Part shown: piece by piece, positions 1 to 55,759 of the stretch | How positions within the stretch are numbered: position 1 is the stretch's first letter | Layout of the letters: each line of letters starts with the position of its first letter | Assembly (NCBI GenBank): GCA_951406725.2 | Contig: OX597823.1 | Span: 94,860,001-94,924,000 of the forward strand | From: Octopus vulgaris | Taxonomy: Eukaryota | DNA: 64,000 nucleotides | Direction of reading: 5' to 3' | Position numbers and translations under genes: made by a program | The notes under the pieces: model-generated | What the model saw: the letters and a program-made list of their open reading frames with translations, nothing else | The model's database searches: none | Told to the model about the DNA's origin: nothing

Positions 1-516
1 CGAGGCCTATGCCAGTACTGTATAACCAGCCCACTTATGAGTACCCCTCATTCATTCAGAATGAGGGGAATCTGGAATGAAGGATAAATCTATTTTTAAT
101 CAAGAACAAAGAAGAGATGCACCACCACTTCAAGCAATGCCAAAGTTTTAACTGTGTTACGTTTCAGGTGTGTTCAATGAAGATTTAGCTTGAAAAAGCT
201 CAGAACTTTCTGGATGACCTAATATATATATACATATATTCACACACACGTGTGTGTGTGAAACCCACATGCAGTGTTGTCATCTCTTGTCAACGAATCA
301 TCAACTCATTTTGTACCTTCAAAGACATAAAATCCATTCCTTGCTAAAAGAAAGTAAGGAACTTCTTATTTCACACTTGGAGAGCAAGCAAGGGTTAATG
401 ACAGGAAGGGCATCTGGCTGTAAAACAATGAATGACTAATATAGATTCATCTAACTCATGCTAGCATGAAAAAAAAGAGATGTAAAACAGAGGAGCGAAT
501 GACCAGTATAACTTAC

Positions 517-602
517 CCTCGAACACAGGTCAATCGAGCAAGGGCAAGGTGCGATGGTTTCAATGTGGATCGTGTTCCATCACTTTTTAATTCTGCTTGT
601 TC
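517..602 (-). CDS. PAN2: PAN2 exon 23 ([28 protein letters not shown])
   Basis: Acceptor TGACAG, donor GTAAGT; 86 nt, phase 0 to 2. Confidence 0.95.
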
Positions 603-3600
603 CTGTCAGAAATTGGAAACAGAAAATATTACTTTCTACAATCAAAAACAACAGACTATACCAAAGATTCTCAACCACAGCTCCCAGGGCCTCATGCAGC
701 CCTCAACAATCTTCCCTCTATAAATATAAAAATTTTTTCTTTAATTGACTTACGTTTGACTCCTTTGGGCACAGCCCAGGTTTTGTTGAGAGTCACTGGA
801 TTAGACACGAAATCTGTTAGTTTCTCTTAAAACACGGGGTTTAGATTTTTATTTATTTATTACACAGGTATTGAGAGATAACGTTATTTACATTTGACGG
901 ATATTTGTCCTCATCTTGTTTGTTGTTAACACGATATTTCGGCTGATATACCCTCCAGCCTTCATCAGGTGTCTGGGGAAATTTCGAACCTGTGTTCTCA
1001 TTCCATTACGCCATATGCCCACGGGCATATGGCATAATGGTTAAGAACGTGGGCTACCCCAAGATTCCGAGTTCGATTCCAAGCAGTGACCTGAGCAACA
1101 ACAATAACGAAAAACACCTTAGGAATGAGAACGCAGGTTCGAATTTTCCCCCAAGAGACCTGATGAAAGCTGGAGGGTATATCAGTTGAAATGTGTTAAC
1201 AACAAACAAAATGAGGACAAATATCCGACAAATGTAAATAATTCCTCATCTCTTAAATATAGAACTGTATTGAGACAGAAGTTGGGCATAAGAGGAATTA
1301 GATGCAATGTGCAAGAGAGGAGACTGCAGTGGAGTGGTCATGTGATGCAGATGGATGGGGACAGTTGCATAAAAAAGTGCCAATCACTCAAAGTGGAGGG
1401 AAGTTGACCCAGGAAGACATGGGATGAGGTCCTGAACCTTACAAAGGAGATGAAAGAGGACCGAGATATGTAGAACAAGGCCTGCCCACCACAATAGAAC
1501 CGAGACCCTAAAACCAAGGTGCCATATAAAAAGCATTGGTGCAGGTTCCACTTAAAAAGCACCCAGTACGCTCTGTGGAGTGGTTGGCATAAGGAAGGGC
1601 AAGCAGCTGCAGATACCAAATGAAAAAAGAGTATGGAACCTGGAGTGCTCCAGGCCTCACCAGTTCCTGTCCAACACATGCCAGCATGGAAAAGTGGACA
1701 GTCCATCTATAATTGCGACAAAACTTGATATCTAATTCTTCACTTTACTAGAAAAGTCCTGTGACAATGAATATCTGCACAGACACACACACATGCATGC
1801 ACGTGCAAGGACAATTATTTGATGAGTCAACAATCAGGAGCCACAACATGACTGCCTGGTCTGCTAGAAATAGCAACCAAATCTTTTTCAGATTCATTCT
1901 CTGTGAAATGAAGGCCACATTGCAGTCCTAGACATATTATGATAGGATGGTTGTTGCTGGTAGTTCTTTCTTTTCTTTGATCTGGTCACAGTTTAAGTAA
2001 TCCCTTTGATGTTAGGTCTGCCCATCCAGTCCTGGAGGAGGACGATGATCACCACCACCACTACCACCACCAACAACAGCAGTTATCAGAATGTAAACCA
2101 GCAGCAGGAATAAGTAAAGGCCTTACCTGATCTAATGAGACAAACTCTGCATCCAGGGCGACCAGAGACCCTCTTTTGGGGATTTCGTCTGGGGTTAATG
2201 GAATAAAGGTCTTCTCTGTAATTTTAGGGTTCACAACTCCACTTTGGTCCAAAAGAACTTCTGATGTGATGGGGTTTTGCACTGGAAAAATTAAATGAGA
2301 AATCACAAATCATAAAACTAGTTGGCACTTTTGTGCTTCCATACTATAGCAAAGTATGAGTCAAGGAGGCTGTCTATAGGTCAGTCAACTTGGTAGAAAT
2401 AGCAGCCAGATCGGTGTCAAATCACATTGTATTGTCTTAATAAAAGGGCACACAATACAATATGGCCCCTGGTATAGAGTAAGATGGGATGATCATGGCT
2501 GAAACCCTCTTTCATCATTGGTGTACTCAGTCAGCATTACCTAGGGCTAAACAGCAACTATGCAAACAATTCACCACATCTATGTTTCTCAAACTAACAA
2601 GGCAGCTTCTATGTCATTTAATCAGCTAGAAATAGCAGCTAAATCTCCCTCAAGGAACTCACTAGATCCTGTTGAACTGCTCAACCCATACCAGTATGGA
2701 AAGGTGATAATGAGGACAATAACAATGATGATGATGATGATGCTAATGATGACAATGACAAAGACGATGATAAGGATGCCAATACTGGAACTCAAGCCTG
2801 CAAAATAACCAAGTGCTTTGGCGTCAAGGTTATATGTATGTGTTAATGGCTTGAAAAAAAAAATTTTTTAACCTCAACCCAGATGGTAACATCTAGAATG
2901 CAGGAAGAATACTTTAAGCAGTTGCCATAGAAACAAGGATTCACGAAGCACAGTTAGTTATGACAATATATATACATCCAGTGAAGGCACATGGCTTAGT
3001 GGTTAAGGCATTCGACTCACGATTGTAAGGTTGTGAGTTCAATTCCCAGCGACGCGTTGTGTCCTTGAGCAAGACATTTTATTTCACGTTGCTCCAGTCT
3101 ACTCAGTTGGCAAAAATGAGTAGTACCTGTATTTCAAAGGGCTGGCCTTGTCACACTCTGTATCACACTGAATCTCCCCGAGAACTATGTTAAGGGTACG
3201 CGTGTCTGTGGAGTGCTCAGCCACTTGCATGTTAATTTCACAAGCAAGCTGTTCTGTTGATCGGATCAGCTGGGACCCTCATTGTTGTCGTAACCAACAG
3301 AGTGCTCCTTATATACATCTACATGTCATATGTCGACTCACTGATGACATAATTAGGGTTAAACATCAAGAAAATAAATAATAGGACTAACGAACAAGCC
3401 TCTTTTGTAGTCACTCAAATTGCTAAATATAGCAGCCAAATCTCTCAAATCACATTCCAGTACATTAAAATGAAGTTTTATTGGATAATGTGGCCTTAGA
3501 TGGATTGTCTGAATAATAAATGGGATGGTCATAGAATGATTAAAACACTTTAATCTTAAAACTTGTTCTGCGATGATCTTTTCTCTCATATGTTAATTCA

Positions 3601-6600
3601 GGGGTTTTCAACCGGGGTCCATATAAGATTTTTTTGTCAAAATTTATGTGCAAAACATCATTTATATTTCTATAATAAATAAAATATCATTATTTTTATA
3701 CAATTCCTAATAGTGTTCAACTATAAACATAGAATAGGATTTTATTTAAACATTGAATGGGGTCTAGTGGAGTGAAATAGGAATCAAAGTGGTTCATTGG
3801 GTAAAAATGGTCAAGAACCACTGCTTTAAGCCTTCATCTCCAAGCATAAAATCACCTCTCTCAGGGTTCATAGTTTTGTAAGTGACATGGTAACCTCACT
3901 AGTGCTGGTGCCATGGAAAAAAAAGGCATTCGATGCACTCTGTAAAGTGGTTGGTATTAGGAAGGGCATCCAGCCATCGAAACCGTGTCTAAGCAGACAC
4001 TGGAGTATGATGCAGTCCTTGGATCCATTAGATTCTGTTGAACCATACAACTTAGGCCAGCATGGAACAACATGGACATTAAATGCTGAGCATGATGGTG
4101 ATGATGATGATATATCAGACATCATCTGGGGCTAAACACCAAATCAACAACTCAACAACAAACAACACAAATTGTGTCTATTTCTAGTGAAGGTCAAGTA
4201 GAGGCACAAAGTGTAGCTGTGTGGTCAAGAAGCTTTGCTTGCTAGCTGTGTGGTTTTGGGTTCAGTCCCACTGCAAAGCATCTTGGGCAAGTGTCCTCTA
4301 CTTTAGCCACAAACCAATCAAAGCCTTCCAAGTTGATTTTCTAGATGGAAACTGAAAGAAGCCCATGATAAAGGTCAATTTGTTTGAATAAACCCTGAAG
4401 GAGATGCCCCAGTACGGCCACAACCCAAAGACTGAAACAAGTAAAAGCTACTCACCCGTTATATCATGGTATTGGTTGATATTTTTCCGAGTAAAATAAA
4501 TGATGCAGGGTATTTTCCAGTCCATGTCAAAATGCAAAGCTTCTGACTGAAAACATAATTTGAAATTAAAAGGAAAATCTTTATCAATAAAAGAGACTTT
4601 CTAAAAATTAGGGGAACAACAACAGTTCTGGGGGCTTCAAGAAACCACAAAACTCGAGAGAAAATTTTGACAAACTTACTAAATCATCATCATCATCATC
4701 ATCGTTTAACGTCCGTTTTCCATGCTAGCATGGGTTGGACGGTTCAACTGGGGTCTGGGAAGCCAGAAGGCTGCATCAGGCCCAGTCTGATCTGGCAGTG
4801 TTTCTACGGCTGGATGCCCTTCCTAACACCAACCACTCCGAGAGTGTAGTGGGTGCTTTTTATGTGCCACCGGCACGGGTGCCAGACGAGGCTGGCAAAC
4901 GGCCACGATCGGATGGTGCTTTTTATGTGCCACCGGCACGGAGGCCAGTCGGGGCGGCGCTGGCAATGGCCATGTTCGGATGGTTCTCTTATGCCACCGG
5001 CACTGGTATCTCAGCTACAATTTCCATTCATGTTGAAAGATTTTGATTTCGATTTTCACTTGCGTCAACAGGTCTTCACAAGTAGGGTTTGTGTCACAAG
5101 AAGGAAAGGTATGCATAAGTGGGCTGGCTACGTCCCAGGTAGAGGCCATAGGTTATGGTCTCACTTGTCCTGCCAGGTCTTCCCACGCACAGCATACTTC
5201 CAAAGGTCTCGGTCTCTGGTCATTTCCTCGGTGAGACCTAAAGTTCGAAGGTCATTCTTCACCACCTCGTCCTAGGTTTTCCTGGGTCTATCTCTTCCAC
5301 AGGTTCCCTCAATCGCCAGGGTGTGGCACTTTTTCACACAACTATCTTCATCTATTCTCGCTACATGACCATAGCAGCGCAAACGTCTCTCTTGCACACC
5401 ACAACTGATGCTTCTTAGGTACAACTTTTCTCTCAAGGTACTTACACTCTGTCGAGTATGAACCCTGACATTACACATCCATCGGAGCATACTGGCTTCA
5501 TTTATTGCGAGCTTACGCATATCCTCAGCAGTCATGGCCCAAGTTTCACTGCCATTCTCCCTGGAATGTGGTGGAAGCTGGTCTCTGAGCATTTTCAGTG
5601 TTTATTGCTCCCGAGCATCTGCCACATACAAAAACTATCTTCCCAGTTAGCCTTCCTTTGACATTGCTGCACCTCTTATGTGTCCATAGCTTACACTTGG
5701 TGCATCTTATAGAGTTTCTACCTACACCTTTTCTACAGATCGAGCAGGGCCATCTACCTGAAGGCATTTGTGATTTGCCTGCCTTCCTACATATTAGGAC
5801 TTTGGTTTTAGCTAGGTTGATTTTAAGGCCCTTCGATTCTAATCCTTGTCTCCACACTTGAAACTTTGCCTCTAGTTCTGATAGTGACTCAGCAATTAGT
5901 ACAGTTCTATATTTAAGAGATGAGGAATTATGTACATTATTTACATTTGACAAATATCTGTCAAATGTAAATAATGTAAATAATGAACCTAACTAAATAT
6001 TTACAATATATCACCAGATATATATTTGTGTGTGTGTCCATCCCCGTCCATGTTCAATCAGTCCAAATGCATATTCGGAAGGTTCTGCCACACGTCAGGC
6101 ATTGGTCATCTGCTGGGACTGAAGACAAAGCGTTTGCTCTGAACTTGTGTAGATCCTGTATATTTTTTTGGTTCCCTTGCAATCCTTGTTCGTAGAAGGT
6201 GACACCTCTGTTGGTAGAGCTTTGCCAGGTAGGGCAGTCTTGAGTCAGAGTTTCCCCAGGTGTTGACATTTTGATCTCAAAGCTTGTCAGTGAGGTTTTG
6301 AGTGGGTCTTTGAAGTACTTTTTCTGTCGACTTTCTGTACTTTTGTGTTCTATCAGTTCAGTGTAAAACAGTTTCTCAAGGATCCCACATCAGGCATTTA
6401 AACAAAGTGGCCTGCCCCCACCTGACTTATGCTCTCTTCAGCTGTGTGTAATATGGTTGGCAGATCAGCTCAAGAGAGGACCTCTGTGCCTGGGATCCGG
6501 TAACTTTCAACAAGTTTTTCAGGCAGTTCATATGGAAGCAGTTTAGTTTTTTGGCATGTGTATATATATCATACACGCACACAAATATATTTATAAATAC

Positions 6601-7690
6601 ATAATGTTTAACTATTACATGCATTTCAGGTGATTTCATAACAAGAAATCTGTTCTGCTTTGGCCCTTTCCTCTCGTACTTTACTCTTCTCTACTCCTCA
6701 TCTCTTCCCCACTCAGGGGTTTGAAATCTCACAAGCTAAATGGTCACCTTATTAATGCTGGTAGCACAACAACAAAACACCCTGCACATATCATAAAGTG
6801 TTTGGTGCAAGAAAGGTCATCCAGCTGAAAAAAACAAAGACCTGTCAAAGCAGACAGTGGAGCACAATACAGTCTGTCAGACCATCCAACCCATGCCACC
6901 ATGGAACTGGGACGTTAAATGATGGTGAATATATATATATATAGGGGGAAATAGTGAGAGGGTTTTGTTATCTGGGAAATAGGGTGGATGTGAAGCAGCT
7001 GTGACAGCAAGAGCAAGACTTGGCTGGGTGAAGTTCAGGGAATGTGGAATGTTGTTGTATGGGAAAAGGTCCTCATTGAATATGAAAAGAAGGGTCTATA
7101 GGGGTTACGTGAGAGCTGCAATACTGTATGGGAGTGAGACATGGTGTTTGAGGGACAGAGAGATGGCAATTTTGAGGACTGAGGACTTGGAGATGCTGGG
7201 GTTGGAGGAATTGGTGGAATGGTTGGAAAGGATGAGTGGAGTGAGGTGGTATGGGAATGTGTTGAGGAGGAATGAGGAGAATGTTCTGAAGTGGGTGCTA
7301 GAGTTTGAGGTAAATGGACATCGAAAGTGAGGTAGACCGAAAAAAATGTGGAGGGGATTGGGAAGTTCGGCTTGAGAAGGGAAGAATGCCCAAAATTGGG
7401 CAAGATGGTGAGATGGTGGTTGCTATGGCATTGAGGTAGATCTGGCCACTACCATTAATGGGGACAAAACCTGGATTTAAAACACTGGATGATGGATGGA
7501 TGGATGTAAGAGAATCTTCGTGGTAAGAGGCTTGCTTCCTAACCACATGGTTCCAGGTTCAGTCCCACTGCATGGCACCTTGGGCAAGTGTCTTCTGCTA
7601 TACCCTTGAGCCAACCAAAGTCTTGTGAGTGGATTTGGTAGACAGAAACTGAAAGAAGCCTGTTGTATATATATATATATATATACACAC

Positions 7691-7723
<33 letters not shown>

Positions 7724-7750
7724 CATATATATATACACACATATATATAC

Positions 7751-7781
<31 letters not shown>

Positions 7782-7818
7782 CATATACATATATACATAT
7801 ACATATATATATATATAC

Positions 7819-7874
<56 letters not shown>

Positions 7875-8057
7875 TTGTCTCTCCATCATCACTTGATAAC
7901 TAACATTGGTGTTTACACCCCTATAACTTAGTGGTTCAGCAAAAGAGACTGGTAGAATAAGTACTAGGCTTACAAAGAATAAGTCCTGGAGTCGATTTGA
8001 TCGACTATAGGTAGTGCTCCAGCATGACCACAGTCAAATGACTGAAACAAGTAAAAA

Positions 8058-8100
<43 letters not shown>

Positions 8101-11100
8101 TAAATATACACACATATACATAAATATATATATACACACATATACATATATATATATACACACACATACATATATATACATGTATGTATACACACACAAG
8201 ATTTAACTATTGAATGCATTTCTTGCAGTTTCATCATCATCATTGTTTAACGTCCGTTTTCCATGCTGGCATGGGTTGGACAGTTTGACTGGGGACTGGC
8301 AAGCCAAGAGGTCACACCAGGCTGCAGTCTGATCTGGCAAGGTTTCTACAGCTGGATGCCCTTCCTAATGCCAACCACTCCGAGAGTGTAGTGGGTGCTT
8401 TTTACATGCCTGCACAGGAGCTAGAAGGGGCTGGTATCGACCATGATCAGATGGTGCTTTTTTTTGTGCCATCAGCATGGGAGCCGTTCAAGGTGGTGCA
8501 GGCATCGGCCACATTTGGCTGGTGCTTTTTACATGCCACCAGCACAGAAGCCAGTCGGGGCGAGGCAGCTGGCATCGACCATGTTCGGAGGTGCTTTTCA
8601 TGTGCCACCAGCATGGGGACCACAACTACAATTTCCATTTGATTGTGATTTGATATTGCTGTTGATGTTGAATGTACTTGACTCAATAGGTCTCCTCAAG
8701 CACGGCATGTTGCCCTACGAGCCAAGGTACTTTTGAGTGAGCTGGTTATGTGACACTGGTGTAGGTTACAGCTGTGATCTCACTTTATTTGCCGGGTCTT
8801 TTCAGTCTTATATATAATATAAATGGTTGTGTGGTAAAGAAATATGTTCTATCACAACCAGAATTTTACTGGAGGGTTTTGAATCCCCCAACATCAGACT
8901 TGTATTTTGGTCAAGAGCGTTCCATGGCGGCGAGCTGGCAGAATCGTTAGCATGCCAGGCAAAATGCATAGCCGTATTTCGTCTGCCGTTACGTTCTGAG
9001 TTCAAATTCTGCCGAGGTCGACTTTGCCTTTCATCCTTTCGAGGTCGATAAATACCAGTTACGCACTGGGGTCGATGTAATCGACTTAATCCATTTGTCT
9101 GTCCTTGTTTGTCCCCTCTGTGTTTAGCCCCTTGTGGGTAGTAAAGAAATAGGTATCTGTGAGGTGTTTATCTTGTTTAGGTTGTGCGTATGTCATAATA
9201 ACAAGAAAAAAGAAACAACAAAGATACAATAAAAGAAAAAGAAAGAAGAAGAACTGAACTCACCATTTCGATTGGTGTGATGGAGAAATCGTTGAAGAGG
9301 TACCATTGGGTACAAGTGACTTTTTCTTTCCGTTGGTGGTACTTCTTGCCGACTTTGACACAGCTGACTAAATTACCTGAGGTTTTACCATCTTTGATGT
9401 GTGACACTGTGGCATAGATTTCATAATCCTTTGAGAACTCATCCGGTGGTGACGTCTTTGCCTGGAATTAACAGGGAAACAGTGAAAGAAAGAAAGGAAG
9501 GGAGGGAGGGAGAGAGAGAGAGAGAGAGAAAGCCATTAAAAGATATTCAGGTAACAGTGTCACTAATTATGATGAATGACTTGGAGGTAGAATCACTGAA
9601 GAAATTTCACATATACAGGCTGTGCCATATGTACGTAAGTGGCCATGGTAGGCTGGGCACTCCATTGGTTACAACAAGGAGTTCCAGTTGATCTGATCAA
9701 CAGAATGGCCTGCTCGTGAAATTAATACATAAGGGGCTGAATATTCCACAGACATGCGTACCCCTAACATAGTTCTTAGGGAGACTGAGTGTGACACAGA
9801 ATGTGACAAGGCTCATTTTTGCCAGCTGAATGGAGTGGAGCAATGTGAAATAAAGTGTCTTGCTCAAGGACACAACGTGCCCCCAGGAATCAAACTCATG
9901 ACTTTACAATTGTGAGCCAAACACCCCTAACCACTGAGCCATGGCCCCTTTGCATAAACACAAATATTCACACTTGAAATAACAGAAATCGTTCTTGATT
10001 ATGACTTAGTGGTAGGGCAGTTGGAAAATGACTGAAACATTGAAGCAGAGTGAAAATTATTTTGTTGTATTTTGGGAGGGTCGTTGTGCCAATAACACTC
10101 ACACTGGTCCTATTTCATGTCTTTTACTTTTTATTTGTCAAGTCGTTAAGTAGTTAACCAATTAACTAACCAACTGCTTGATTAATCAATTCAGTTAATC
10201 ACTCCATCAGGTTTGTCAAAGTCCTTTTGGTGCCATTTGAGATGTCAACCATGACATGCCTTCTCTGCTTCGAATTTAATAAAAAATAGGTTTTAAGAAA
10301 TGTCTGGGATTAAAAAGAAGGAAAAACATTGCCTTGCTTTGTCTTCCCAAGGGTATTTGAACTGTTGTGGATTAACATCAAGATCAACTCTGCTTAAGAA
10401 CACAACTGAAGGACATATTGGACAACGTCATCCTTGAGAAAACAAACAGATGGGTTGGTCATGGCTGGACAGCTGATGAATTTAATTGATATGTTAGATT
10501 AGGCAAATCCTGTTTCTACAGTGAATTTGAGGACGGTCTTCAAATACATCACAATAAACCAGACCAAAAGTGACATGTTCTGATAGCTTTATAATTTATA
10601 TAACAGGACATGGACACTCTCAAAGTGGTAGGTGTTAGGAAGGGCATCCAGCTGTAGAAACTCTGTCAGATCAAGATTGGAGCCTGGTGTAGCCTCCTGG
10701 CTTCCCAGACCCCAGTCGAACCGTCCAGCCTATGCTATCATGGAAAGCGGATGTTAAACGATGATGATGATGATGGACAGATGAGCATAAGATGTGAGAC
10801 ATGGACCCAGATGAGATTAGGGTATCGTTTATCCAGACTGAAAAACATTTGATTAGGGATTTGCAGTAGAATGACCACTGGTGAGGCACTGGTGAAGTAA
10901 GGCAGCTAGAAACAGTGTCTTTAGGTAGCTAAGGTTTTACCATTTCCTCTTAGTTCCCACCATGGTTTGGACCAATGTACAACATGCATTTGATGTTGGG
11001 ACATTTATCAAGAATGGTAGATCTGAGAAATTCTTTTACTGCACGCAGTATATCTGCTAAAACAACACTAACAGAAGTTATTCAGCAGCAGGAACAACAC

Positions 11101-14100
11101 AGGGAAGTGAATCACAATATAATTAACATAATTTAATTAGAGAACACCCCTTTCCTGCAAATACCTGCCCCACTTCCTCACTTACCTCTTCTGTTAATCT
11201 GTTCACTGAAAATACGTTGTTTGAGAGAGAAAGCCGTAAGCCTGTTGGGACGTAGCTGGACTGAGAATTTTCTTCGTTAAGTGAATCCCCACCATCACTT
11301 GATTGATCATAACTCCTGAAGAAGACAAAGAGGAATATAAGGTCAAAGGAAAAGATTTCTTACACGGAAGAAAATATCAGCCACACCCCCATATTATCTT
11401 TTACTCGTTTCAGTTACTTAGACTACAGCCATGCTGGAGTACCACCTTCAAGAACTTCAAGTACATGTATCCCAGTGCCTATTTTTTTAAAGCCGGATAC
11501 TTATTCCATCAGTTTCCCTGGTGGCACGTAAAAGCACCCGCTACACTCTCGGAGTGGTTGGCATTAAGAATGGCATCCAGCTGTAGAAAACTATGCCAAA
11601 TCAGTCTGAAGTCTGGTGCAGCCTTCCAGCATGGACAACGGACATTAAATGATGATGATGTGAATAAATAAGCATTCCAGTTGACAGAATAATTTTAATG
11701 TTAAAGGGTTAAACAGCAGAAAATTACAAGAAAATTGGTGAATAAGATGATGCAAAGAGATGAATGGATAAAAACCAGACACATTATGAGACCTGCATGA
11801 CAAACTAAGACACTAAACAAGTGGTCCTCAACTGAGGTCCATCCGACACTTAAACGAAGTGGGGGAGAAGAGGGCTCTACATAAGATTTTGTTGTTAAAA
11901 TTTGCAACAAATTGGTTATGCTCCTTCAATACACAGAATATTTTAACAATTTTTTAATACAATTTCTTATAATATTCAATTATAAAAAAATGTAATAAGA
12001 TTTTCTGAAACATCGAATGGCTATGAAGGAGCAGTAGGAATCAAAGGAGTTTGTAGATAAAAATGGTTAACAACCATGCTACTAAACTATACAAGACAAC
12101 ATTCCAGATTTACCATGGTACTCCAGACTTGCTGCTGCATCCCAAATGCACTACAAAATCCCAGGTACCCTACAACACACCAAACCCTATACCACTACCC
12201 CAGACATTTCACAAAAACAGCTGAAACAAAATAAATCTGCTCCTCCCTATCCGTCTCTCCCCCACCCGTATCTATCTTTTTTCCTCACTCAATATTTACT
12301 CATTGTAAGGCAGTGAGCTGGCAGAAATGTTAGCACACCGGGAAAAATGCTTAGCGATATTTCGTCTGTCTTTATGTTCTCAGTTCAAATTCCGCTGAGG
12401 TTGACTTTGCCTTTCATCATTTTGGGGTCGATAAATTAAGTAACAGTTACATACTGGGGTCAATCTAATCGACTGGCACTCTCCCCCAAAATTTCAGGTC
12501 TTGTGCTTAGAGTAGAAAAGAATATTTTACAAATATAAGACAGCAAGCAGGCAGAAACGTTAGCATGCTGAGCGAAATGCTTAACAGTATTTCATCTGAC
12601 GTTACGTTGTGAGTTCAAATTCCACTGAGGTCGACTTTGCCTTTCATCCTTTCGGTGGTTAATAAATTAAGTACCAGTTATGCACTGGGGTCGATATAAT
12701 CGACTTAATCCATTTATCTGTTCTTGTTTGTCCCCTCTGTGTTTAGCTCCTTGTGGGTAGTAAAGAAATAGGTATTTCATCTGTCTTGACAACCAAATCA
12801 AAATAGATGAACATCAATGGAATTTGTATCTTTGTGGTACCAGTACCGGTGGCACACAAGAAAACCATCCAAACGTGGCCGTAGCCAGTACCGCATCGAC
12901 TGGCCTCTGTGATGTGGGCACATAACAAACACCATCCGATCGTGGTGGCCCCTACCTGGGACGTAGTCAGTCCACCTGTGCATACCTTCCTTCTTGTGAC
13001 ACTTGTGAAGACCTGTTGAGGCAAGTGAAAATCAACAAATCAAAAAATCAAAACAAATCAAAATAGATGAACATCAATGGAATCTGTATCTCTGTGGTAC
13101 CAGTGCCGGTGGCACACAAGAAAACCATCCGAACGTGGCTGTAGCCAGTACCGCATCGACTGGCCTCCGTGCTGTGGGCACATAACAAACGCCATCCGAT
13201 CGTGGCCGTTCGCCAGCCTCATCTGGCACCTGTCCGAAGACCCGGCAAGACTAGTCAGGCCATAGCCTGTGGCCCCTTCCTGGGACGTAGTCAGTCCACC
13301 TGTGCATACCTTCCTTCTTATGACACTTGTGAAGACCTGTTGAGGCAAGTGCAAATCAAATCAAACCAAATGACACTCGTGAAGACATGTTGAGGCAAGT
13401 GATAATAATAATAATCATAATCAAATCAAAATAGATGAACATCAATGGAATTTGTATCTTTGTGGTACCAATGCCGGTGGCACACAAGAAAACCATCCGT
13501 AGCCAGTACCACATCGACTGGCCTCCGTGCTGTGGGCACGTAACAAATACCATCCGATCGTGGCCGTTCGCCAGCCTCATCTGGCACCTGTGTTGGTGGC
13601 ACATAAAAACACCATCCAAAGACCCGGCAAGACTAGTCAGGCCATAACCCGTGGCCCCTACCTGGGACGTAGTCAGTCCACCTGTGCATACCTTCCTTCT
13701 TATGACACTTGTGAAGACCTGTTGAGGCAAGTATGTGACACTTGTGAAGACCTGTTGAGGCAAGTGTGTGACACTTGTGAAGACCTGTTGAGGCAAGTGA
13801 AAATCAAATCAAACCAAATCAAAATAGATGAACATCAATGGAATTTGTATCTTTGTGGTACCAGTGCCGGTGGCACACAAGAAAACCATCCGAACGTGGC
13901 CGTAGCCAGTACCGCATCGACTGGCTTCCGTGCTGTGGGCACGTAACAAACACCATCCGATCGTGGCCGTTCGCCAGCCTCATCTGGCACGTGTCGGTGG
14001 CACATAAAAACACCATCCGAGCGTGGCCGTCTGCCAGCCTCGTCTGGCACCTGTGTCGGTGGCACATAAAAAACACCATCCGAGTGTGGCCGTTCGCCAG

Positions 14101-15125
14101 CCTCGTCTGGCACCTGTGTCGGTGGCACATAAAATCACCCACTACACTCTCGGAGTGGTTGGCGTTAGGAAGGGCATCCAGCTGTAGAAACACTGCCAGA
14201 TCTGACTGGCCTGGTGCAGCCTTCGGGCTCCCCAGACTCCAGTTGAACCGTCCAACCCATGCTAGCATGGAAAGCGGACGTTAAATGATGATGATGATGA
14301 TTGACATTCTGAGTTCAAATTCTGCAGAGGTTAACTTTGCCTTTCATCCTTTTCGGGTCGATAAATTAAGTACCATTTGCATACTGGGGTCAATCTAATT
14401 GACTGGCCCCCTCCCCCAAAATTTCGAGCCTAGTTCTTAGAGTAGGAAAAAAAAAAATTACTCACTGTGGGTTTGGTTCATGCCGAAAGAAGCAATCTTT
14501 CCGTTTACAGAGTTTACCATAACGACACAGTTTCTTCTTTGGACTAGCTATTTCTTCCTTCTGTTCTGTGCTGTCTTTTTTGATAATCTTAGGAAAAACA
14601 AAAAGAATAGAAAAAAAACCCACATTAAAAATCAAGAAACCTTATTATTTTTTTAAAGTCAAATATCACAGAAATCACAACTATGTTCCAGAAGAACCCC
14701 AATTCACGAATTCTTTCCTGAAGGTCATCCATCACCTGAAAGAGATTTTATGTTAAAAAAATTGCTTGTGAAACTGATTTGCATGTAAAGTGAAGATCCA
14801 GAGTACTTTAACAAGTTGCCTGGTTCCACATTCCACCCCAACTCCAGGTCTTTCCTGGACAGGTTCAGGATTAAGCATTAGCTACATCATTTCACTCACA
14901 CATCTGCAAGAATTTGTAAATGCTATAAAAAAAAGACATTGCTCTCATTCCTCTAATTAATAATAAAATCAAAATCAAAATCAAAATAAAATATAAAATT
15001 CACCAGTCGTAGTAAAGATAATCTGTCAAGGAGAAGGAAATCTCTGAAATAAAAACTGTTCAGCAGGGACTTGTAACCAGTTGATACTATTTTGCAAAGA
15101 AAAAAATTGACTGATTCATACATAC

Positions 15126-15179
<54 letters not shown>

Positions 15180-18100
15180 TCATCATTGTCCTGAAGGCTG
15201 TACCAGGCTCCAATTTGATCTGGTAAGGTTTCGACAGCTGGATGCCCTTCCTAATGCCAATCACCCCGAGAGTGTAGTGGGTTCTTTTTATGTGCCACCA
15301 GCATGAGGGCCATTCAGGTGGTACTGGCATTGACCATGCTTGAATGGTGCTTTTTACATGCCACCAGCACGGGAGCCAGTCAGGTGGCACTAGCATCAAC
15401 CATGGTTGTGTATACATATTATATATATATATATATATGTACACTGCTGCCACCACCACCATTGTCATCATGTAAACTCTGTTTTCTATGCTGGCATATG
15501 TTGGACAGTTTGACAGGAGATGGCAAGGCTGGAGGGTCGCCCCAGGCTCCAACTGTTTGTTTTGGCATGGTTTCCATGGTTGGATGCTTTTCCTAATGCC
15601 AACCACTCGACAGTGTGTGGTGGGTGCTTTTGATGTGCCACCAGCACAACAAGTAGTTTTATGTGGCACCAGTGCAAGTGCCTTTTAGATGGCACCAACC
15701 ACAAATGCTTTACACCATCAACATGGGTGATTTATACATGGCACCAGCATGGGGGCTTTTTTATGTGGAACCAGCACAGGTGACTTTACACGGTGGGATG
15801 AGAGGAGGAGGCGACTCATGCGAACTAAACAAAATTGGAAGGTAACAAACAAGCAAAAAAATATATCAAGAGTGAAAAACTCACCTGTAACTGCGTCTTC
15901 CAGAATTCTATATCACGAGGGTTGTCGAGGCCACAATTTAAGGCAATAATATCTGGAAGAGATTTTATGAGTTTTTTCTGGACCTGTAAAAAGAAGAAAG
16001 GATCACTATCACTATGTATATGTGTGTGTGTGTTAGGGTGTTCTGCATGTGATCATAAAGTTGTGAGTTCAATTCCTGGCAGCATGTTATGTCCTTGAGC
16101 AAGACACTTTATTTCACATTGCTGCTGTCCACTCAACTGGGCAACAATGAGCTGTACTTGTATTCGAAAGGGGCCAGCCTTGTCTCACTCTCTACTAGAG
16201 AACTTTGTTAAGGGTAAGTGTGTCTGTGGGGTACTCAGCCACTTCCCTGTTAATTTCACGAGCAGGTTAGGGTGGCGAGCTGGCAAAAACATTAGTAAGC
16301 TGGGCAAAATGCTTAGTGGTATTTCATCTGTCTTTACATTCTGAGTTCAAACTCTGCCAAGGTCAACTCTGCTAAGGTCAACTCTGCCTTTCATCCTTTT
16401 GGGGTCGATTAAATAAGTACCAGTTACACACTGGGGTTGATGTAATCAACTTAATCCCTTTGTATGTCCTTGTTTGTCCCCTCTATGTTTAGCCCCCTGT
16501 GGGTAATAAAGAAATAAAATTTCACGAGCAGGCCGTTCCTTTGATTGGATCAACTGGAACACTCGTCATCATAACGAACGGAGAGCCAGTTTATTTTTCA
16601 TCTTTGTGTATGTGTGTACACGTTTGTGTATGTGCATGCATGTGTGTGCACGGACTACTCACATGGGTTTGATAACGGCTGCAAACACTGCACCAAGCTT
16701 GCATCACCTGCTCTGATGTTAAACTGTGCAACAAGATGTTAGAGAATGAAATGACTTGAGGAGGTTCATCTGTAAAACAAAACAAAACAAAACAAAAATC
16801 AGTGGTTTGAGGGGGAGTATGCAGAGGGTGGGGTCTTTTTTTATCTTTTGTTTCAGTAATTAGACTGTGGCCATACTGGGGCACCACCATGACATGTTAT
16901 TAGTCGAATAAATTGAGCCAAGTACATTTATTTTTTTAAAACCTGGTACTTAGTCTATTGGTCTCTTTTGCCAAATTGTTAAAACCAGCGTCGCATTACT
17001 GGCATTCGAGCCCCGTTCTAGTAGGGTATTAAGAGCACCATCCGATCGTGATCGTTGCCAGAGCGGCTATCTGGCCTCGGTGCCGGTGGCAAGTAAAAGA
17101 TACCATTCGAGCTTGATCGTTACCAGCATTGCTTTACTGGCACCTGTGCCGGTGGCATGTGTAAAAGATTTGAGTGAGGTCTTTGCCAGTGCTGCCTGAC
17201 TGGCCTCGTGCCGGTGACACGTAAAAGCACCCACTATACTCTCGGACTGGTTGGCATTAGGAAGGGCATCCAGCTTTAGAAACTCTGCCAGATCAAGATT
17301 GAAGCCCGGTGCAGCCATCTGGTTCACCAGCCCTCAGTCAAAATCGTCCAACCCATGCTAGCATGGAAAGTGGACGTTAAATGATGATGATGATGATGGA
17401 CATAAACAAACACCAGTTGTCGAATGGTGGGTGGGGACAAACACACAAAGGCGTACACATGAATATATATATGACAGGCTTTTTACAGTTTCCATCTACC
17501 AAATCCACTCACAAGGCTTTGGTCAGCTTGAAGCTATAGCAGGCAACACTTGACCAAGGTGCCACACAGTGGGGCTGAGTCTGCAACCATGGGGCAGAAG
17601 AGAGTGGTGGAGGGACGACATTGGAATACACTGGAGAAGAGGGGAAGGAGGAGGAGCAGAATACACTCACACAACAGATTCTTATCTATGTTTATGTTTG
17701 ATTAAACGAGATTATCTATGTAGTCAGTAGACAAAACCTCCCTTCTTGAAAGTTGTATTTAGAAGCTAAAAAAAAAACATGCAAGGGAGATAACTCCTAT
17801 AAAATAAACTGAACATTTTGGCAAAGTAATGGATATTTTCCAGTCTTATTGCATCTCCTCAGGTAAGAATATTTTATATAGTCAGCAAGACTTTGAAGTA
17901 ATTTATATATAACACACACACATATATATATAGAGAGAGAGACGGACAGGACATTGTCAAGGGCATTGAAGTCTCCTTTGTTCTCGTGATGGCGTTTGAG
18001 GAGGTGTTGAAGGGCTGTTGATGCTTGTCTTGTAACTTATATAACACCAGATTGTAAAGACTATGTAACACAACGGATGTATACCCTGAGGGTTGTAACA

Positions 18101-20379
18101 TACATAACACCAAGTTGTAACACAGCAGGTGTGTAACTTAAGATTGTAACTTATCTAACACCAAATTTGTAATTTGGGAGCTGAAAGTTGTGTAACACCA
18201 CCAGACAGCAACACCTGGTTACACACTGGATGTGTAACCATGGTGATGTAATTTATGCAGGACATCATCTGCATCATTCAATGTCCATTTTTCATGCTGG
18301 CATGGGTTGGATGGTTTGACGGGAGCTGGTAAGGCAAGGGGCCGCACCAATCACCATTGTCTGTTTTGGATTGGTTCCCACAGTTAGATACTTTTCGTAG
18401 TACCAATATAAGACAGTAAGTTGAAGAACTGATTTGCTGAGATTATTCATGTAAATGTTGTTGCTGAAGCCATCATCTATTCTGTGGTGAGGGTGGTGGT
18501 TGTGATGCACGATGGCCCCATGTTGGGATGTGTGAGTTAGTGATGTTGAAGACAGGGATCTGACTGATACAACTATTTTGGTGTGGTTTTTGTGGTTTTG
18601 GTGTGGGTGGAATTTAGGGTCAGGATTCTACTTGATTTCCAAAATCTGGAGACTTTGACAATGTCAATATGAGTGGTTTAAGTTGGTAGGGGCAGTGATT
18701 CCCTCAGGCCCTGTGTGGTTTAGGCATTGGTTTGTATATCTAACGCAGATGAACCGTTTAGCATCCAGATTACTTTATCAAATATTCATCATCATCGTTT
18801 AACGTCCGTTTTCCATGCTAGCATGGGTTGGACGGTTCGACTGGGGTCTGGGAAGCCAGGAGGCTGCACCAGGCTTCAGTCTGATCTGGCAGTGTTTCTA
18901 CAGCTGGATGCCCTTCCTAATGCCAACCACTCTGTGAGTGTAGTGGGTGTTTTTTACGTGCCACCGGCACAGGTGCCAGGCGGGGCTGGCAATGGCCACA
19001 ATTGGTTGGTGCTTTTTACGTGCCACCGACAATGAAGCTAGTCAAGAAGGCGCTGGCATCAAATATTAGGTCTGTTTATTCAGATTGTTTTAAATTAATC
19101 ATGCATTATCTCGTAGCATTGAAATTTTGATGTGATTGTTTATTTTTCAGAATGACATTGTAGGGTAGGTATGAGAGACCAGATCTTCCCCGTTTGAACA
19201 TAGAACACATATGGTGTTTGGGCTTAATATGGGTGGTTTAAATGCTAAACGATTAAGTTATGAAAGGGGCTACACAGAAGAAATAGAAAATAACAGAAGT
19301 AAGATGGAAAAGTATAACAGGAAACAACAGAAAAAAAAAATAAAGGATAGCAAAAAAGGAAGCAAAATAAGATCTGTAGATGAGAGAAGATTAAAGATAT
19401 ATGACTGACCTGTGTTTGATGATGGATATGATAAGTTGGTGAGGGTAGGATAAGAGGTTCTGTGAGTCTCATGGCCACAACGACATCGTAGAAGTGTTTC
19501 CATCTCAATTCCAAACAGCTGACTTACTATAGAAACTTCTGGCTCAGATTTGGGTGGACTAAGAAAGAAAGGACAATAAATATCAACATCACTTCAGTAT
19601 CATCATCATCATCATTATTATAATTATATTAATGCGAATTTTTCCATAGATGCATTGAGGTTTTTTTTTTTGTACAAGTGGATGCCCTTCCTGTCACCAG
19701 CCTTCTTCCATTTCCAAGGCAACATTTCTCTGTGGCCAGATATGTTTCCACAGAAAATTGGAAATGAAGGACACTGTATATGACATGGGGAATACACTCA
19801 TTCACAACTATCATGCTACGTCAAACCAAGGACACACCGACACCCCTATCCCACTCTCTCCCAATATGTGCATGTGTGTGGATGTGTGCGTATATATATA
19901 TATATATATATATATATACTAGGCTGTATGGTAAGAAGTTTGTTTGCCAACAACATGGCTCTGAGTTCAGTCTCATTGCATGGCACCTTGAGTAAATGTC
20001 TTCTACTATAGCCCTGGGCCAACCAAAGCCTTGTAGGTGGATTTGGTAGATGGATACTGAAAGAAGCCTGTCATATATATATGTGTGTGTGCATATATAT
20101 ATATGTGCACATATGTGTATCAACCCATGCTAGCATGGAAAGCGGACGTTAAACGATGATGATGATGATATATATGTGCATCATCATTTAACGTCCGTTT
20201 TCCATGCTAGCATGGGCTGGATGGTTCAACTGGGGTCTGGGAAGCCAGAAGGCTGCGTCAGGCCCAGTCTGATCTGGCAGTGTTTCTACGGCTGGATGCC
20301 CTTCCTAATGCCAACCACTCTGTGAGTGTAGTGGGTGCTTTTTACGTGCTACCTGCACAGCGTACCACTTATCTATCTA

Positions 20380-20420
<41 letters not shown>

Positions 20421-23400
20421 CACACACATACACCACTTGACAAATAGTGTTGGTGTGTTTACAACCTCATAACTTAGTAGTTGGGCAAAAAGAGACCAAC
20501 AGAGTAAGGACAAGGTGTGAAAGACAAAATAAGTATTGGGGTCAATTAGTTTGACTAAAACTTCTTGAAGGCAGTGCTGCCCCAGCATGGCTGCAATCTA
20601 ATCACTGAAACAAGTAAAAAGATTTAAAAAATACATAAAGCTAGTGTGTTATATATTTATATCCCTGTCATCCATGAGATCCTAACATAGGCTTGAAACT
20701 AGACTGGCTGATCCCTCTTTTCCCATCCATGAAGATTTTGTGATACTGAACATACAGGCAAGTTACAGTCATCTACACACACACACAGAGCTAGTTAAAA
20801 ATCTATAGAAACTCCTTGTAGTATAACAGTAATTTTACTTTGGGACCAAGGCACAGACGTGGTTCTGCAGTTGAGGTTCACTTCAAAATCATGTGGTTCA
20901 TGGTTCATACCCACCACAAGACACTGTTGGCTGGTATTGTCTATCAGGGCCATGGGTTGACCAATGTGAATATCATCATCATTTAACGTCCATTTACCAG
21001 GCTGGCATGGGTTGGACAGTTTGACAGGAGCTGGCAAGACTGGAGAGCTGCCCCAGTTTCCAATTGTCTGTTTTGGCATGGTTTTCTATGGTAGGATGGC
21101 CTTCCTAATGTCAACCACTTTACAGAGTGTAACTGGGTGCTGTTTATATGACACCAGCATGCAAGCATTTCACGTGGGACCAGTACGAGTGCCCTTCATG
21201 TGGTGCTGGAATGGGTGCATTTTATATGGTGAGCTCACAAGAAAAGATAAATGGAAACTGTAAGAAGCCCAAGATGTGCACATAAACATGTATGTGTGAG
21301 TATGAGAGTGTCTGTGAGATTTGTTTGAGTATGTGTCTATGCAAGCATATCCACAGATGCCTGTGCGTGGGACTTCTTACTCTTGTCTTGATGTCTATGC
21401 ACCAATAAAAAAAAAGAACAAAGTGGTGTTGAGTCAAGTGAAGTCATTGTTGTGGCCAATGACAGTACCGCCTACTTGGCACTCGCACCGAGGGGACGTT
21501 AAAAGCACCATTCAAGCATGGTCGATGCCAGTACTGCCTGACTGGCCCTCAAACTGGTGACATGTAAAAAGCACCATTCAAGTGTGATCAGTGCTGCCTG
21601 ACTGGCTCTCGTGACGGTGGCACGTAAAAAGCACCATACAAGCTTGGTTGATGCCAGTACTGCCTGACTGGCCCTTGTGCTGGTGGCACGTAAAAAGCAC
21701 CCACTACACTCTCGAAGTGGTTGGCGTTAGGAAGGGCATCCAGCTGTAGAAACTTTGCTAGATCAGACTGGAGCCTGGTGCAGCCTCCTGGCTTGCCAGT
21801 CATCAAATTGTCCAACCCATGCCAGCATGGAAAGCAGACGTTAAACGATGACGATGAATCTTCCATGAAAACATGTCCGACTATTGATCTGTTTGTTATT
21901 GAAAAGATAAGGGGAAATATTCCATTGTTTGGAAACAGGTGACACTTGTGGACAGGATAAATCAGCCTCATTAAGTTTCTGTGAGACCCATAACAGCAGA
22001 GAAAAATAATGATGATGGTATATATTTTGCAGTGTCCTTCCTTCAAATTCGACTGGCCATAAAATATTGGTCACTCCAAGATGTCATACAATGGAATCGC
22101 ATTGCTGTGAAGTGAAATTCCTGCCTTTCAATGCTCCAGAACTGATAAAATAAAATACCAGTCAACTACTGGGGTCAATGGTACCAGGTGACCCCTTCTC
22201 TCAAGATTGTTAACCCTGTGTTTATTAGTTGAGGACTTGGGTTTGTTCTTGTACTTGGTAGAATTTATGTGGGTAGTGGGTTGTTATTAAGGCAGTGGCT
22301 GGCTGGTAGAATAGTTAGCATGTAAGGTAAAATGCTTAGTAGCATTTCACCTGTCTTTACATCCAGAGTTCAAATTCTGCAAGGTCTACTTTGCCTTTCA
22401 TCCTTTTGGGGTCGATGTAATCAACTAATCTCCTCTCCCCAATAAATATCAAATGGAAATTGTAGTTGTGATACCTGTGCCGGTGGCATGTAAAAAGCAA
22501 CATCCCGAACGTGGCCGATGCCAGCGCCGCCTTGTTGGCTTCTGTGCCGATGGCACGTAAAAAGCACCAACCAATCGTGGTTGCTGCCAGCCTCCCCTGG
22601 CACGTAAAAAGCACCCACTACACTCGCGGAGTGGTTGGCGTTAGGAAGGGCATCCAGCTGTAGAAACACTGCTAGATCAGACTGGAGCCTGGTGCAGCCT
22701 CCTGGCTTCCAAGACCCTGGTTGAACCGTCCAACCCGTGCTAGCACGGAAAACAGACGTTAAACGATGATGATGATGTGCCAAAATCACAAACAATTGAT
22801 ATTATTCTAATGTTTATCCTTTACCTTTCTGGAACAGCTTCACTGCTTTGATCTAAGATATTTGCACCTGGTGGAATGTTCTCCTGTATAGGGCAGGGTT
22901 CTGTGTAGACAGGTATGGAGTAATAATCTGCTATTTCCTGCTGGCAACCTTCAACAGGAATGGCACCTTCAGGTATGGCATTCTGGTAGATTGTGCCTCG
23001 AACACAGTATTCCTGAAATTTAGATATTTACAGAGGTTTCAGTAAATTGTGATGGCAACAAGGGTAGAATGGCTGGACTGGTTGAGAATTTGATGGAATC
23101 AGTTCTTTAAATGAGAGAGAGAGAGAGACAGACAGAGAGAGGGAGAGAGAGAGAGAAAGAGAGTTTGAATAAGTAGAAATGATGAGTTAAATCAGGATAG
23201 CTAAGTATGTACAACGACCTGTTAATGGGTTGAATGTGGGACTGAAGAAGTAGCAATAACTCCTGAAATATGAATATACACCCATTTTCTATTTTACTAT
23301 CTTTGACCAGATTGTTTCCACAGACACATTCGTAATAAGAAATGTCATAACTTTCAGTGCTGGCTCTAATTTCTGAAGAAAATCTGTAGAGATACACTTT

Positions 23401-25950
23401 AAAAAGAAGACTGAATTGCACTGCTAACACAGGTAGGATTTATAAACCTTTAAAATATACTTGGGAGTATATAGTGGTTGTTAAACGAAATACAGTGTCC
23501 CTACCAGCAATTTATATATATATATATATACATATCTTTTACATTTTACTTGTCTCAGGCGTTAGACTGCGGCCATGCTGGGGCACCACCTCGAAGAATT
23601 TTTAGTCAAATGAATTGACTCAGCACGGTACTTATTACCTCAGTCTCTTTGGTCAAACTGCTAAGTCATATTTATGTAAACACACCAACACCAGTTGTCA
23701 AGTGGTGGTGTGAGACAAACATACACAGATACAGATATAGATATATATATATAGGTTGGTAGAGTTAGCATTTGGAATAACTGTCTAAGGGATAAGAATA
23801 TCAGTTTTTATTACTGGTATAAATTACCTATGCTAACCCTGGGCATGGATATGCAAGCATACTACGCTCACTGGATACATGCAATAACAGAATAAACAAG
23901 AGTTTTATCAGGAATCAAATTTAAATTAAGGAGAAAATTCTTGATCAACAAACAAATTGACTCCCATCGGTTATTATTTTTTTTTATACAAAACTTAACA
24001 TTTCTAACAGCTGTTTCTACTTCCAATGTCAGTCAGCGCTACCGAAGAAAATTCTGAGAATAATATTTGTCATCTCTTTTAGCACATCCGATCTGGTACA
24101 GAGTGAAGAAAAATACATAAGATAGAAGAGGGAAGAAGGCTTAATATAGAAGCATCATACCATTTTGCAGTGTAAAGCTTGAAGTCGATGAGCAAATGAC
24201 TAAACTAGAAAAATAATTGGTGGGTTAATCTTTCTTTAGGGGTACCAAGGTGTATAAATGATATATTGATTAGTATTATTTACGAAATATTCTTTTTCTA
24301 GACCTATTGGCGAATCTCATATTAAAGTACTGTTTTATTTTGCCATTATCTTTCTAGTTTAGTCATTTGCTCATTGACTTCAAACTTTACACTGTAAAAT
24401 GGTGTGATTCAAATATATTAAGCCTTCTTTCCTCATCTCAAGGCCCTTTTCTTTCCTCTTCTCTTCTTTTATTTTATGCATTTGTCTTCACTCTGATCAA
24501 GCTCCATGTACCAGATCGGATGTGCCATAGAATATGACAAATATTATTCTCAGAATTTTCTTTGGCAGCACTGACTGACATTGGAAACAGAAACAGCTGT
24601 TAAAAATGTTAAGTCTTGTATAAAAAAAAAATAACCAATGGTAGTCAATTTGTTGATCAAGAATTTTCTTCATTTTGTATTTAATTTATATATCAGGAGT
24701 GGCTGTGTGGTAAGCAGCTTGCTTACCAACCAGATGGTTCCAGGTTCAGTCCCATTGCATGGCACCTTGGGTCTTCTTAAAGTTAAAAGACTTTTCCATT
24801 TTTCCTAAATGTCAAACTAATACACTCGCTTGTTCCTACACCTGTCTTTGTCTTTCTATAAACCTAAACTACCATATTTTAACGTGTATAAGGAACCATT
24901 TTTGGTCAAAAATTAGGTTAAAAAATATGGGTGTTTTTTATAAATGAATAATATTATAGATATTAATAAATTACTTAATTCCTCAAACCTCCAAATTAGG
25001 GGTTTTCTTATACACATTAAAATACTATATATATATATATATATATATTCTTTTATTTGTTTTAGTCATTTGACTGCGGTCATGCTGGGGCACCGCCTTT
25101 ATACACAAACACACACACAACTGGCTTCTTTCAGTTTCCACCTACTAAACTCATTCACAAGATTTTAATCCTCCTAGGGTTACATTAGAAGTCACCTGCA
25201 ACTCGGTGGTATTGAACCAGGAATCACATTTTAGAAAAGGCATCCAGCCATAGAAACTATGCCAAAGCAGATATCAGCACTCAGAGCAGCTCCCTGGTTC
25301 ACTGGTTTTCATACCAACATGGAATATGGGCAGTCAACAATGATGAGGATGAGGAAGGTTGTGGGGAACATCCATGTGCAAATGTGCATGCATGTATGCT
25401 GATGTATGTATAAATAAATGCATGCTTGTGTAAGATGTATAAATACATAAAGCACTGGTGACGATGCCACTTAAAAAAAGGACCCAGAACACTCAGTGGT
25501 TGGTGTTAGGAAAGGCATTCCAGCTGTGGAAACCATGCTATGGTGGACAATGGAACCTGGTGCAGCACCTAGCCTTACCGGTTCCTGTCAAACTGTCCAA
25601 CCCATGCCAGCATGGAAAAACAGACATTAGAGGATGATGATATGCATATATGTGAATGCACATATACATTTACCAATGTGAGGAGTGTGCATAGATATAT
25701 GTATGTATATACACACACACATATATATATATATTTTCTATTCTACTCTAGGCACAAGGCCCAAAATTTTTGGGGATGGGGCTAGTCGATTAGATTGACC
25801 CCAGTACGTAACTGCTACTTAATTTACCCATCCTGAAAGGATGAAAGGCAAAGTCGACCTTGGCAGAATTTGAACTGAGAACGTAAAGACAGACAAAATA
25901 TTGCTAAGCATTTCATCCAGTGTGCTAACATTTCTGCCAACTTGCCACTT

Positions 25951-26028
<78 letters not shown>

Positions 26029-26237
26029 TAAAAAGAATTCCAACCTTGTCTGATTTTCACGTTTTATTTACAATCTTATAATGATATATTATAAGATAAT
26101 ATATTATAATTGAATAAAATAAAATGAAATAGTAGAATGTTAAATATTCATTCTGATTGAACTAGTACTTTCATGCATTGAATTCTGCAATCTTCGGGTT
26201 CATGTAGTAGTGTTGACAGTCATGCTTCACAATTTTT

Positions 26238-26283
<46 letters not shown>

Positions 26284-36424: not shown

Positions 36425-36460
<36 letters not shown>

Positions 36461-38969: not shown

Positions 38970-39028
<59 letters not shown>

Positions 39029-49940: not shown

Positions 49941-49996
<56 letters not shown>

Positions 49997-55266: not shown

Positions 55267-55759
55267 CTTCTATCCACACTGCTAGTCATGTTGCCCAGAA
55301 CAAACAAAGACACTGCAGAGCAGTGAGGACTAATCTTTTGTCTGGTAACTAACAGAATAACCTCACCAGTGCTGGTGCCACAATTAAATGCACCAAGTCA
55401 AGTAGTGGGTGAATGAGTGGAGAAAATGGAAGGTTGAGATCTTTTAGTTTTCATCATCATCATCGTTTAACATCCGCTTTCCATGCTGGCATGGGTTGGA
55501 CAGTTTGACTGAGGACTGGCAAGCCAAGAGGCTGCACCAAGCTCCAGTCTGATCTGGCAAGGTTTCTACAGCTGGATGCTCTTCCTAACACCAACCACTC
55601 TGAGAGTGTAGCGGGTGCTTTTTACATGCCACCAGCACAAGGCCCAGTCAGGCAGCACTGGCTTCAACCAAGCTTGAATGGTGCTATTTACATGCCAAGA
55701 CGTGACAACTAACAACTCTTCTAGTGTTGGTACCATGACAAAATACAACTGATATAGTG

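Follow-up and report, generated by a model that had tools for sequence, protein, structure and literature searches.

PAN2 exon 18 and the octopus gene

The window, i.e., the whole 64,000-nt stretch of Octopus vulgaris DNA analyzed here, carries coding exons 1–23 of PAN2 (Table 1), and the gene end past residue 1050 lies beyond the window start. The 40 residues translated from exon 18 matched a single protein, P0001 (1230 aa), which is PAN2 in the records of O. vulgaris and O. sinensis. P0001 was found in 23 segments in the window (53528 down to 516), and exon 18 is the 18th of them. Exons 17, 18, and 19, together with the segment 9461-9264, gave 183 aa that exactly matched residues 757-939 of P0001. 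The original prediction described a 122-nt, AG/GT-bounded exon with a finger at 14527-14480; the exon has this length, is preceded by a polypyrimidine tract ending in cctaag, is followed by gtgagt, and is open in frame 0. The exon was also said to be needed to keep its neighbors in frame, and its removal indeed led to a stop at codon 36, three codons into exon 19.

Table 1 Features of the PAN2 locus and other elements in the window.
Feature	Position in window	Strand	Description
PAN2 gene, coding exons 1–23	516..53528	-	Residues 1-1050: WD40, linker, pseudo-UCH, start of DEDD nuclease
PAN2 coding exon 18	14466..14587	-	Residues 790-830; end of long helix, linker, CCCH finger; identical to P0001
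Nab2-type CCCH finger	14480..14527	-	C810-x5-C816-x4-C821-x3-H825; R811, Y812, and F823 are at adenosine-binding positions
Basic lead-in of finger	14528..14545	-	SPKKKL
PAN2 exon 17	15885..15983	-	Pseudo-UCH core strands and start of predicted finger-bearing helix 778-802
PAN2 exon 19	11186..11315	-	Acidic, predicted disordered linker (831-845), then return to pseudo-UCH core
PAN2 exon 13	22827..23012	-	Second predicted disordered pseudo-UCH insert, about residues 610-679
Stretch in intron 17	14953..15684	-	Resembles the stretch used in O. bimaculoides models P0003 and P0051
LINE-like fragments	55700..58950 and 5546..5992		Broken retrotransposon fragments, read from translations
GC skew	56–60 kb		Strong

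PAN2_N WD40, UCH_1, and RNase_T domains were detected in this order in Octopus PAN2 (E = 4.7e-95, 1.8e-93, and 5e-17, respectively). The UCH domain is inactive, with Ala508 at the nucleophile position of the USP Cys box. The DEDDh residues of P0001 (D1013, E1015, D1122, H1169, and D1174) are intact, those past residue 1050 being outside the window. The second insert, that of exon 13, has a counterpart of about 24 residues in human PAN2. To gauge chance occurrence, the spacing C-x5-C-x4-6-C-x3-H was counted in the 127,996 six-frame residues of the window; it was matched three times, and the finger of exon 18 was alone among these in having the basic and aromatic code described below.

Splicing of exon 18 has indirect support from gene models of a curated type and from Logan contigs of no more than 4.0-4.1 kb in which all 1228 aa of PAN2, finger included, are encoded (P0002, P0053 [30 contigs], and P0055). 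Since the whole of PAN2 fits on contigs of this size, they must be nearly intron-free and are most likely assembled transcripts. The finger region of P0002 is identical to that of the named cuttlefish protein P0052, and PAN2 of Argonauta and cuttlefish carries the finger exon. On the other hand, exon 18 is absent from all four PAN2 models of O. bimaculoides, as it would be if it were an annotation artefact or a skippable exon. However, these models also lack core exon 17, and P0003 and P0051 were marked as faulty because they use an intron-17-like stretch in place of exons 17 and 18. The absence in O. bimaculoides would be a fault of the models or assembly. With the broken frame upon skipping and the presence of the finger in Argonauta, cuttlefish, and transcript-sized contigs, we give the artefact or skippable exon practically no credence. 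Among the 46 PAN2 homologues described below, the fingerless rows that look like faulty models are P0003, P0046, and P0043.

Family and predicted structure of the finger

In a comparison of the Octopus finger with Pfam, zf-CCCH_2 (PF14608) was the best family (E = 0.0045), although the score of 17.9 bits is below the gathering score of 25.8 bits. We then used 24 PAN2 fingers chosen from the 33 finger-bearing homologues; 21 matched zf-CCCH_2 at E ≤ 0.05 (best, 3.2e-6), whereas none matched zf-CCHH (PF10283) at this threshold. The top PDB match of a profile of the 24 fingers was fingers 5–7 of yeast Nab2 (E = 3.8e-12 over three fingers); the best single Nab2 finger gave 1.4e-5, and MBNL1 came next with 4.3e-5. 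These results agree with the Nab2/ZC3H14 type that had been proposed, and the family assignment is sound. PF14608 was listed among the precomputed domains of none of the 46 PAN2 rows, and the finger may have been overlooked for this reason.

The octopus finger starts with CRYG, which we take to resemble PBZ, and APLF was weakly matched (E = 3.5 and 7.4; Foldseek rank 5 with an rmsd of 5.3 Å), as might be expected of a PBZ-type finger binding poly(ADP-ribose). However, PBZ ligands are two Cys and two His, while the third ligand is Cys in all 88 distinct PAN2 fingers. With the zf-CCHH result above, a PBZ-type finger is very improbable.

The spacing of the Octopus finger, C-x5-C-x4-C-x3-H, lies within the Nab2-type C-x5-C-x4-6-C-x3-H, and 86 of 88 distinct PAN2 fingers have the x5/x4/x3 spacing. 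According to Kuhlmann et al. (PMC3874189), Nab2 fingers that recognize a pair of adenosines are marked by a basic residue after Cys1 and aromatics at C1+2 and C3+2; adenosines spaced apart within A-rich RNA can also be bound, and high affinity requires tandem fingers. The Octopus finger fits this code with R811 (basic, C1+1), Y812 (aromatic, C1+2), and F823 (aromatic, C3+2). Our search pattern for PAN2 fingers included the basic C1+1 and left the aromatic positions free; both aromatics, as had been noted for the octopus finger, were present in all 88 distinct fingers. Additionally, Arg was found at C2+2 in 80 of 86.

To examine the fold, we modeled exon 18 by AF2, which gave a pLDDT of 91 over residues 21-30. 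A Foldseek search with this model returned Nab2 5L2L chains in the top four rows (rmsd 0.4-1.0 Å), with E-values of 2.6-4.5, which are not significant. The full-length AF2 model, that of isoform P0048 (identical to P0001 up to residue 1131), shows a helix at 778-802 (25 residues), then the finger with a pLDDT of about 80, and then disorder at 831-845. The finger is thus predicted to sit on the tip of a long pseudo-UCH helix with flexible linkers on each side. Over 49 rows, identity to the octopus sequence was 65% in the finger, 16% and 12% in the linkers, and 51-54% in the core; in conservation, the finger surpasses the enzyme core, and its linkers by a factor of four to five. We take the finger site to be a known USP insertion point; a literature search for the site in this role found nothing.

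Nab2 (yeast ZnF5-7, PDB 5L2L/2LHN; Chaetomium ZnF3-5, 4LJ0) and ZC3H14 resemble the PAN2 finger in spacing and code and are its best sequence and fold match, the latter at the non-significant E-values given above. In contrast, Nab2/ZC3H14 is a nuclear poly(A)-binding protein with a tandem array, while the PAN2 finger is single and lies inside a cytoplasmic nuclease. Octopus PAN2 has one finger, and two were found solely in P0240 (Salpingoeca urceolata) and P0278, whose tandem fingers at the PAN2 site are nearer to a Nab2-like array. A search of the ESM Atlas gave no usable match. P0341 (675 aa), which is not PAN2, has seven matched stretches of similar Nab2-type fingers and is a possible relative of a donor array.

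The basic lead-in had been proposed to be an NLS or a CDK site. The classical NLS consensus is K-K/R-x-K/R, and it occurs in none of the 93 finger lead-ins, including that of octopus; an NLS in SPKKKL is therefore unsupported and was rejected. As for the CDK site, the octopus and squid-like sequences have the S-P-x-K pattern, but S/T-P-x-K/R was found in only 14 of the 93 lead-ins and is not broadly conserved. Since a basic residue stands two before Cys1 in 72 of 93, the lysines of SPKKK are probably the lead-in of the finger itself.

Distribution of the PAN2 and PAN3 fingers

Of 46 aligned PAN2 homologues, 33 carry the finger at this position (molluscs, Lingula, Lineus, corals, a louse, a wasp, and a hoverfly). 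The 13 without it are six vertebrate proteins, five tunicate proteins, and two faulty-looking mollusc models. The best 150 of 573 representatives added 82 proteins in which both flanking anchors are covered, 37 of them with the finger. Ten were looked up: the finger is present in S. urceolata (in tandem; transcriptome-derived), S. helianthica, Saccoglossus, a Symsagittifera cluster, and two more, and absent from Chromosphaera, Trichinella, Trichuris, and P0291, one protein of the arthropod clade. Fungal-like and protist-like representatives have a short loop at the finger site. The identified PAN2 set is without sponges, ctenophores, amphioxus, echinoderms, C. elegans, and D. melanogaster.

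The human, yeast, and Neurospora proteins (PDB 9QTU, 6R5K, and 4CZW) share with octopus PAN2 the order of WD40, linker, pseudo-UCH, and DEDD nuclease, but unlike it they have no finger. As expected in the original prediction, the finger is absent from human PAN2; a similarly placed loop there aligns without Cys/His ligands. The alignments of yeast and Neurospora PAN2 break in the finger region. The point at which the Scleropages models P0035 and P0038 diverge coincides exactly with the exon 17/18 boundary of octopus, which suggests that vertebrates keep a fingerless exon at the exon 18 site.

Among the lineages examined, those beyond protostomes with the finger are corals, a hemichordate, an acoel, and two choanoflagellates; those without it are vertebrates, tunicates, two nematodes, fungi, and one ichthyosporean. 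This pattern of absence, set against a presence that reaches from choanoflagellates to insects, indicates that the finger is ancestral and was repeatedly lost, and its presence in corals, a hemichordate, an acoel, and choanoflagellates indicates that vertebrates lost it. The losses concern vertebrates and tunicates, Trichinella, Trichuris, and P0291. Most simply, the finger would have been gained once, before choanoflagellates and animals diverged, and lost several times; the tree, which omitted 2 of 85 rows that were short and the finger loop, has weak deep nodes. It had been expected that the finger might be shared by protostomes rather than confined to cephalopods. Many protostomes do have it, but it is not a protostome addition, and the wording of an "extra" exon has the polarity reversed, the finger being ancestral and not added.

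The partner subunit PAN3 has an N-terminal finger in yeast (PDB 4CYK) and human (residues about 49-68 of the 9QTU sequence). It resembles the PAN2 finger in being a flexibly attached, poly(A)-type CCCH finger of the same complex. However, it is TIS11d-like with the spacing C-x8-C-x5-C-x3-H, lies on the regulatory subunit, and is present twice per complex. The PAN2 finger differs in both spacing and place and belongs to another subtype; therefore, it is not PAN3's finger relocated.

Octopus PAN3 lies at G000:C16:26.16-26.24 Mb. Its first coding exon (G000:C16:26235052-26235447 [L009], 132 residues) has no CCCH motif and is unlike the finger exon of other molluscs. The N-terminal finger was found in none of eight named Octopus models and none of four squid-like proteins, and it is present in 13 of 15 models of other molluscs; the two misses are short isoforms, and other isoforms of those species carry the finger. 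We also scanned 200 kb, covering the 5′ end of Octopus PAN3 and roughly 190 kb upstream, with a profile of seven invertebrate PAN3 fingers, none of them from a named mollusc; nothing scored above 11.9 bits, while all seven held-out fingers scored 36-73 bits. The 11.9-bit match, 184 kb into the scanned region, is a short frame that lies beyond another long ORF and enters a TA repeat, and it was rejected. A possible relic at residues 65-71 of Octopus PAN3 exon 1 was likewise discarded (-0.6 bits; 16 of 500 shuffles equal or better). The Solemya PAN3 finger gave eight weak matches in the Octopus genome, none on C16. About 31 kb upstream of PAN3 exon 1, a 2386-codon open frame (G000:C16:26266926-26274083, reverse strand) contains much basic and low-complexity sequence; after it comes a tandem-repeat-like block that is open in several frames.

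Among the best 120 of 536 PAN3 matches, the finger was found in none of 27 insect and none of 13 nematode proteins, and in six of 11 others (a priapulid, a nemertean, a myriapod, a tick, one annelid, and one more). The insect and nematode counts rest on gene models, in which a small first exon can be overlooked, and cover no named dipteran; the nematode species differ from the two nematodes of the PAN2 set. Judging from these sequences, the PAN2 finger would be the sole CCCH finger of the complex in cephalopods and insects, in most other molluscs it would complement the two of PAN3, and nematodes apparently lack both kinds. A strict swap of fingers between PAN2 and PAN3 was dismissed, as most molluscs carry both and nematodes seemingly neither. 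With repeated loss and the nematode case, neither finger is essential. The pattern suggests that the PAN2 finger is a stand-in for PAN3's finger, not a sign of independence from PAN3.

Possible role in poly(A) recognition

The PAN2 finger very likely adopts the zinc fold, and it probably binds adenosine, in line with a host enzyme that works on poly(A). We lean slightly towards a finger that binds zinc and an adenosine pair and acts as a weak, flexible poly(A) tether, adding to the contacts of the active site, PAN3, and PABP. Zinc would be held by C810, C816, C821, and H825; the adenines would stack on Y812 and F823 with R811 covering them, as in Nab2 fingers. About two adenosines would be bound, giving the nuclease subunit itself a weak hold on poly(A). 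One finger alone being weak, its effect would come from avidity, in combination with the active site, the PAN3 pseudokinase, and PABP contacts. Poly(A) affinity or specificity would be raised modestly, as by the yeast PAN3 finger, and the effect size is probably as modest. In one yeast study (PMC4158885), poly(A) binding by the PAN3 finger lies at about 60-100 µM, the finger slightly improves preference and rate, and isolated Pan2 shows no RNA binding; deletion of the PAN3 finger had a modest effect on deadenylation of a 90A RNP in two others (PMC6547884 and PMC10590902).

A weak hint of RNA binding comes from the embryo mRNA interactome of the fly, in which PAN2 (CG8232, as named in PMC4033318) was captured in two crosslinked and no control replicates (PMC4935972, supplement parts covered). 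In the same parts, its orthologues in human, mouse, worm, and yeast are given as not captured, CG11486 (PAN3) is missing, and fly-only capture is common among unrelated proteins such as CycB, polo, and CkIIbeta.

The finger is predicted to project from the pseudo-UCH domain, which contacts PABP RRM1-2 in yeast (PMC10590902), and might instead dock a protein (PABP, GW182, an RNA adaptor, or PAN3), its Nab2-like residues being kept for that contact. The Arg at C2+2 is outside the Nab2 code, and a lone finger binds RNA weakly. However, the conserved exposed positions are those that stack on adenine in Nab2, and known adaptors use the C-terminal part of PAN3 (bioRxiv 2025.09.27.678968). We regard docking as conceivable but unlikely. 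It is rather improbable that the finger selects A-rich 3′UTR stretches or other single-stranded RNA and steers PAN2 to a subset of transcripts rather than to the tail. Spaced adenosines in A-rich sequences are also taken by Nab2 fingers, and MBNL and other CCCH families match as well, if more weakly; yet the top matches are poly(A)-binding Nab2 fingers, and one finger reads too few bases. Repeated loss and flexible flanks would suit a structural or regulatory appendage (a redox or zinc sensor, or a spacer) with no role in ligand binding, but the surface aromatics and basic residues are conserved above the enzyme core, which leaves this reading little room.

The mechanism of PAN2-PAN3 is known from fungal and human proteins, whose PAN2 has no finger. 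A bolder reading, somewhat less likely than not, is that the ancestral animal complex had a Nab2-type poly(A)-reading finger on the nuclease and a TIS11-type one on PAN3, of which vertebrates kept only PAN3's while only PAN2's survived in cephalopods and insects. PAN2 of octopus and flies would then have taken over direct recognition of adenosine away from the active site and would bind poly(A) on its own, which the isolated fungal enzyme does not, and the division of labor given in textbooks would fail for most animals. If most invertebrate PAN2s read adenosine and insects and cephalopods lack the PAN3 finger, substrate recognition would be wired differently in Drosophila.

The finger is apparently an ancestral, undescribed domain of invertebrate and choanoflagellate PAN2. 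In the portions available of PMC4158885, PMC6547884, PMC10590902, and bioRxiv 2025.09.27.678968, PAN2 is described as WD40, linker, UCH, and nuclease only, and the accessible text and four supplements of PMC12990809 do not list a PAN2 finger. Titles and abstracts on PAN2/PAN3 mention none, with subscription journals thinly covered; published fly PAN2 alignments may show the insert. New here is also that no PAN3 finger was found in Octopus (cephalopods) and insects, complementary to the PAN2 finger.

Octopus PAN3 also differs in its PAM2-like motifs. In P0087 (PAN3, G000:C16 about 26.22 Mb), residues 175-185 and 215-222 are PAM2-like sites. Octopus and squid-like PAN3 have a degenerate form of the motif common to the bivalve and human proteins (..EFIP). 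Of an upstream motif, squid-like and gastropod proteins have a good version and Octopus a weaker one; PABP recruitment via PAN3 may differ in octopods.
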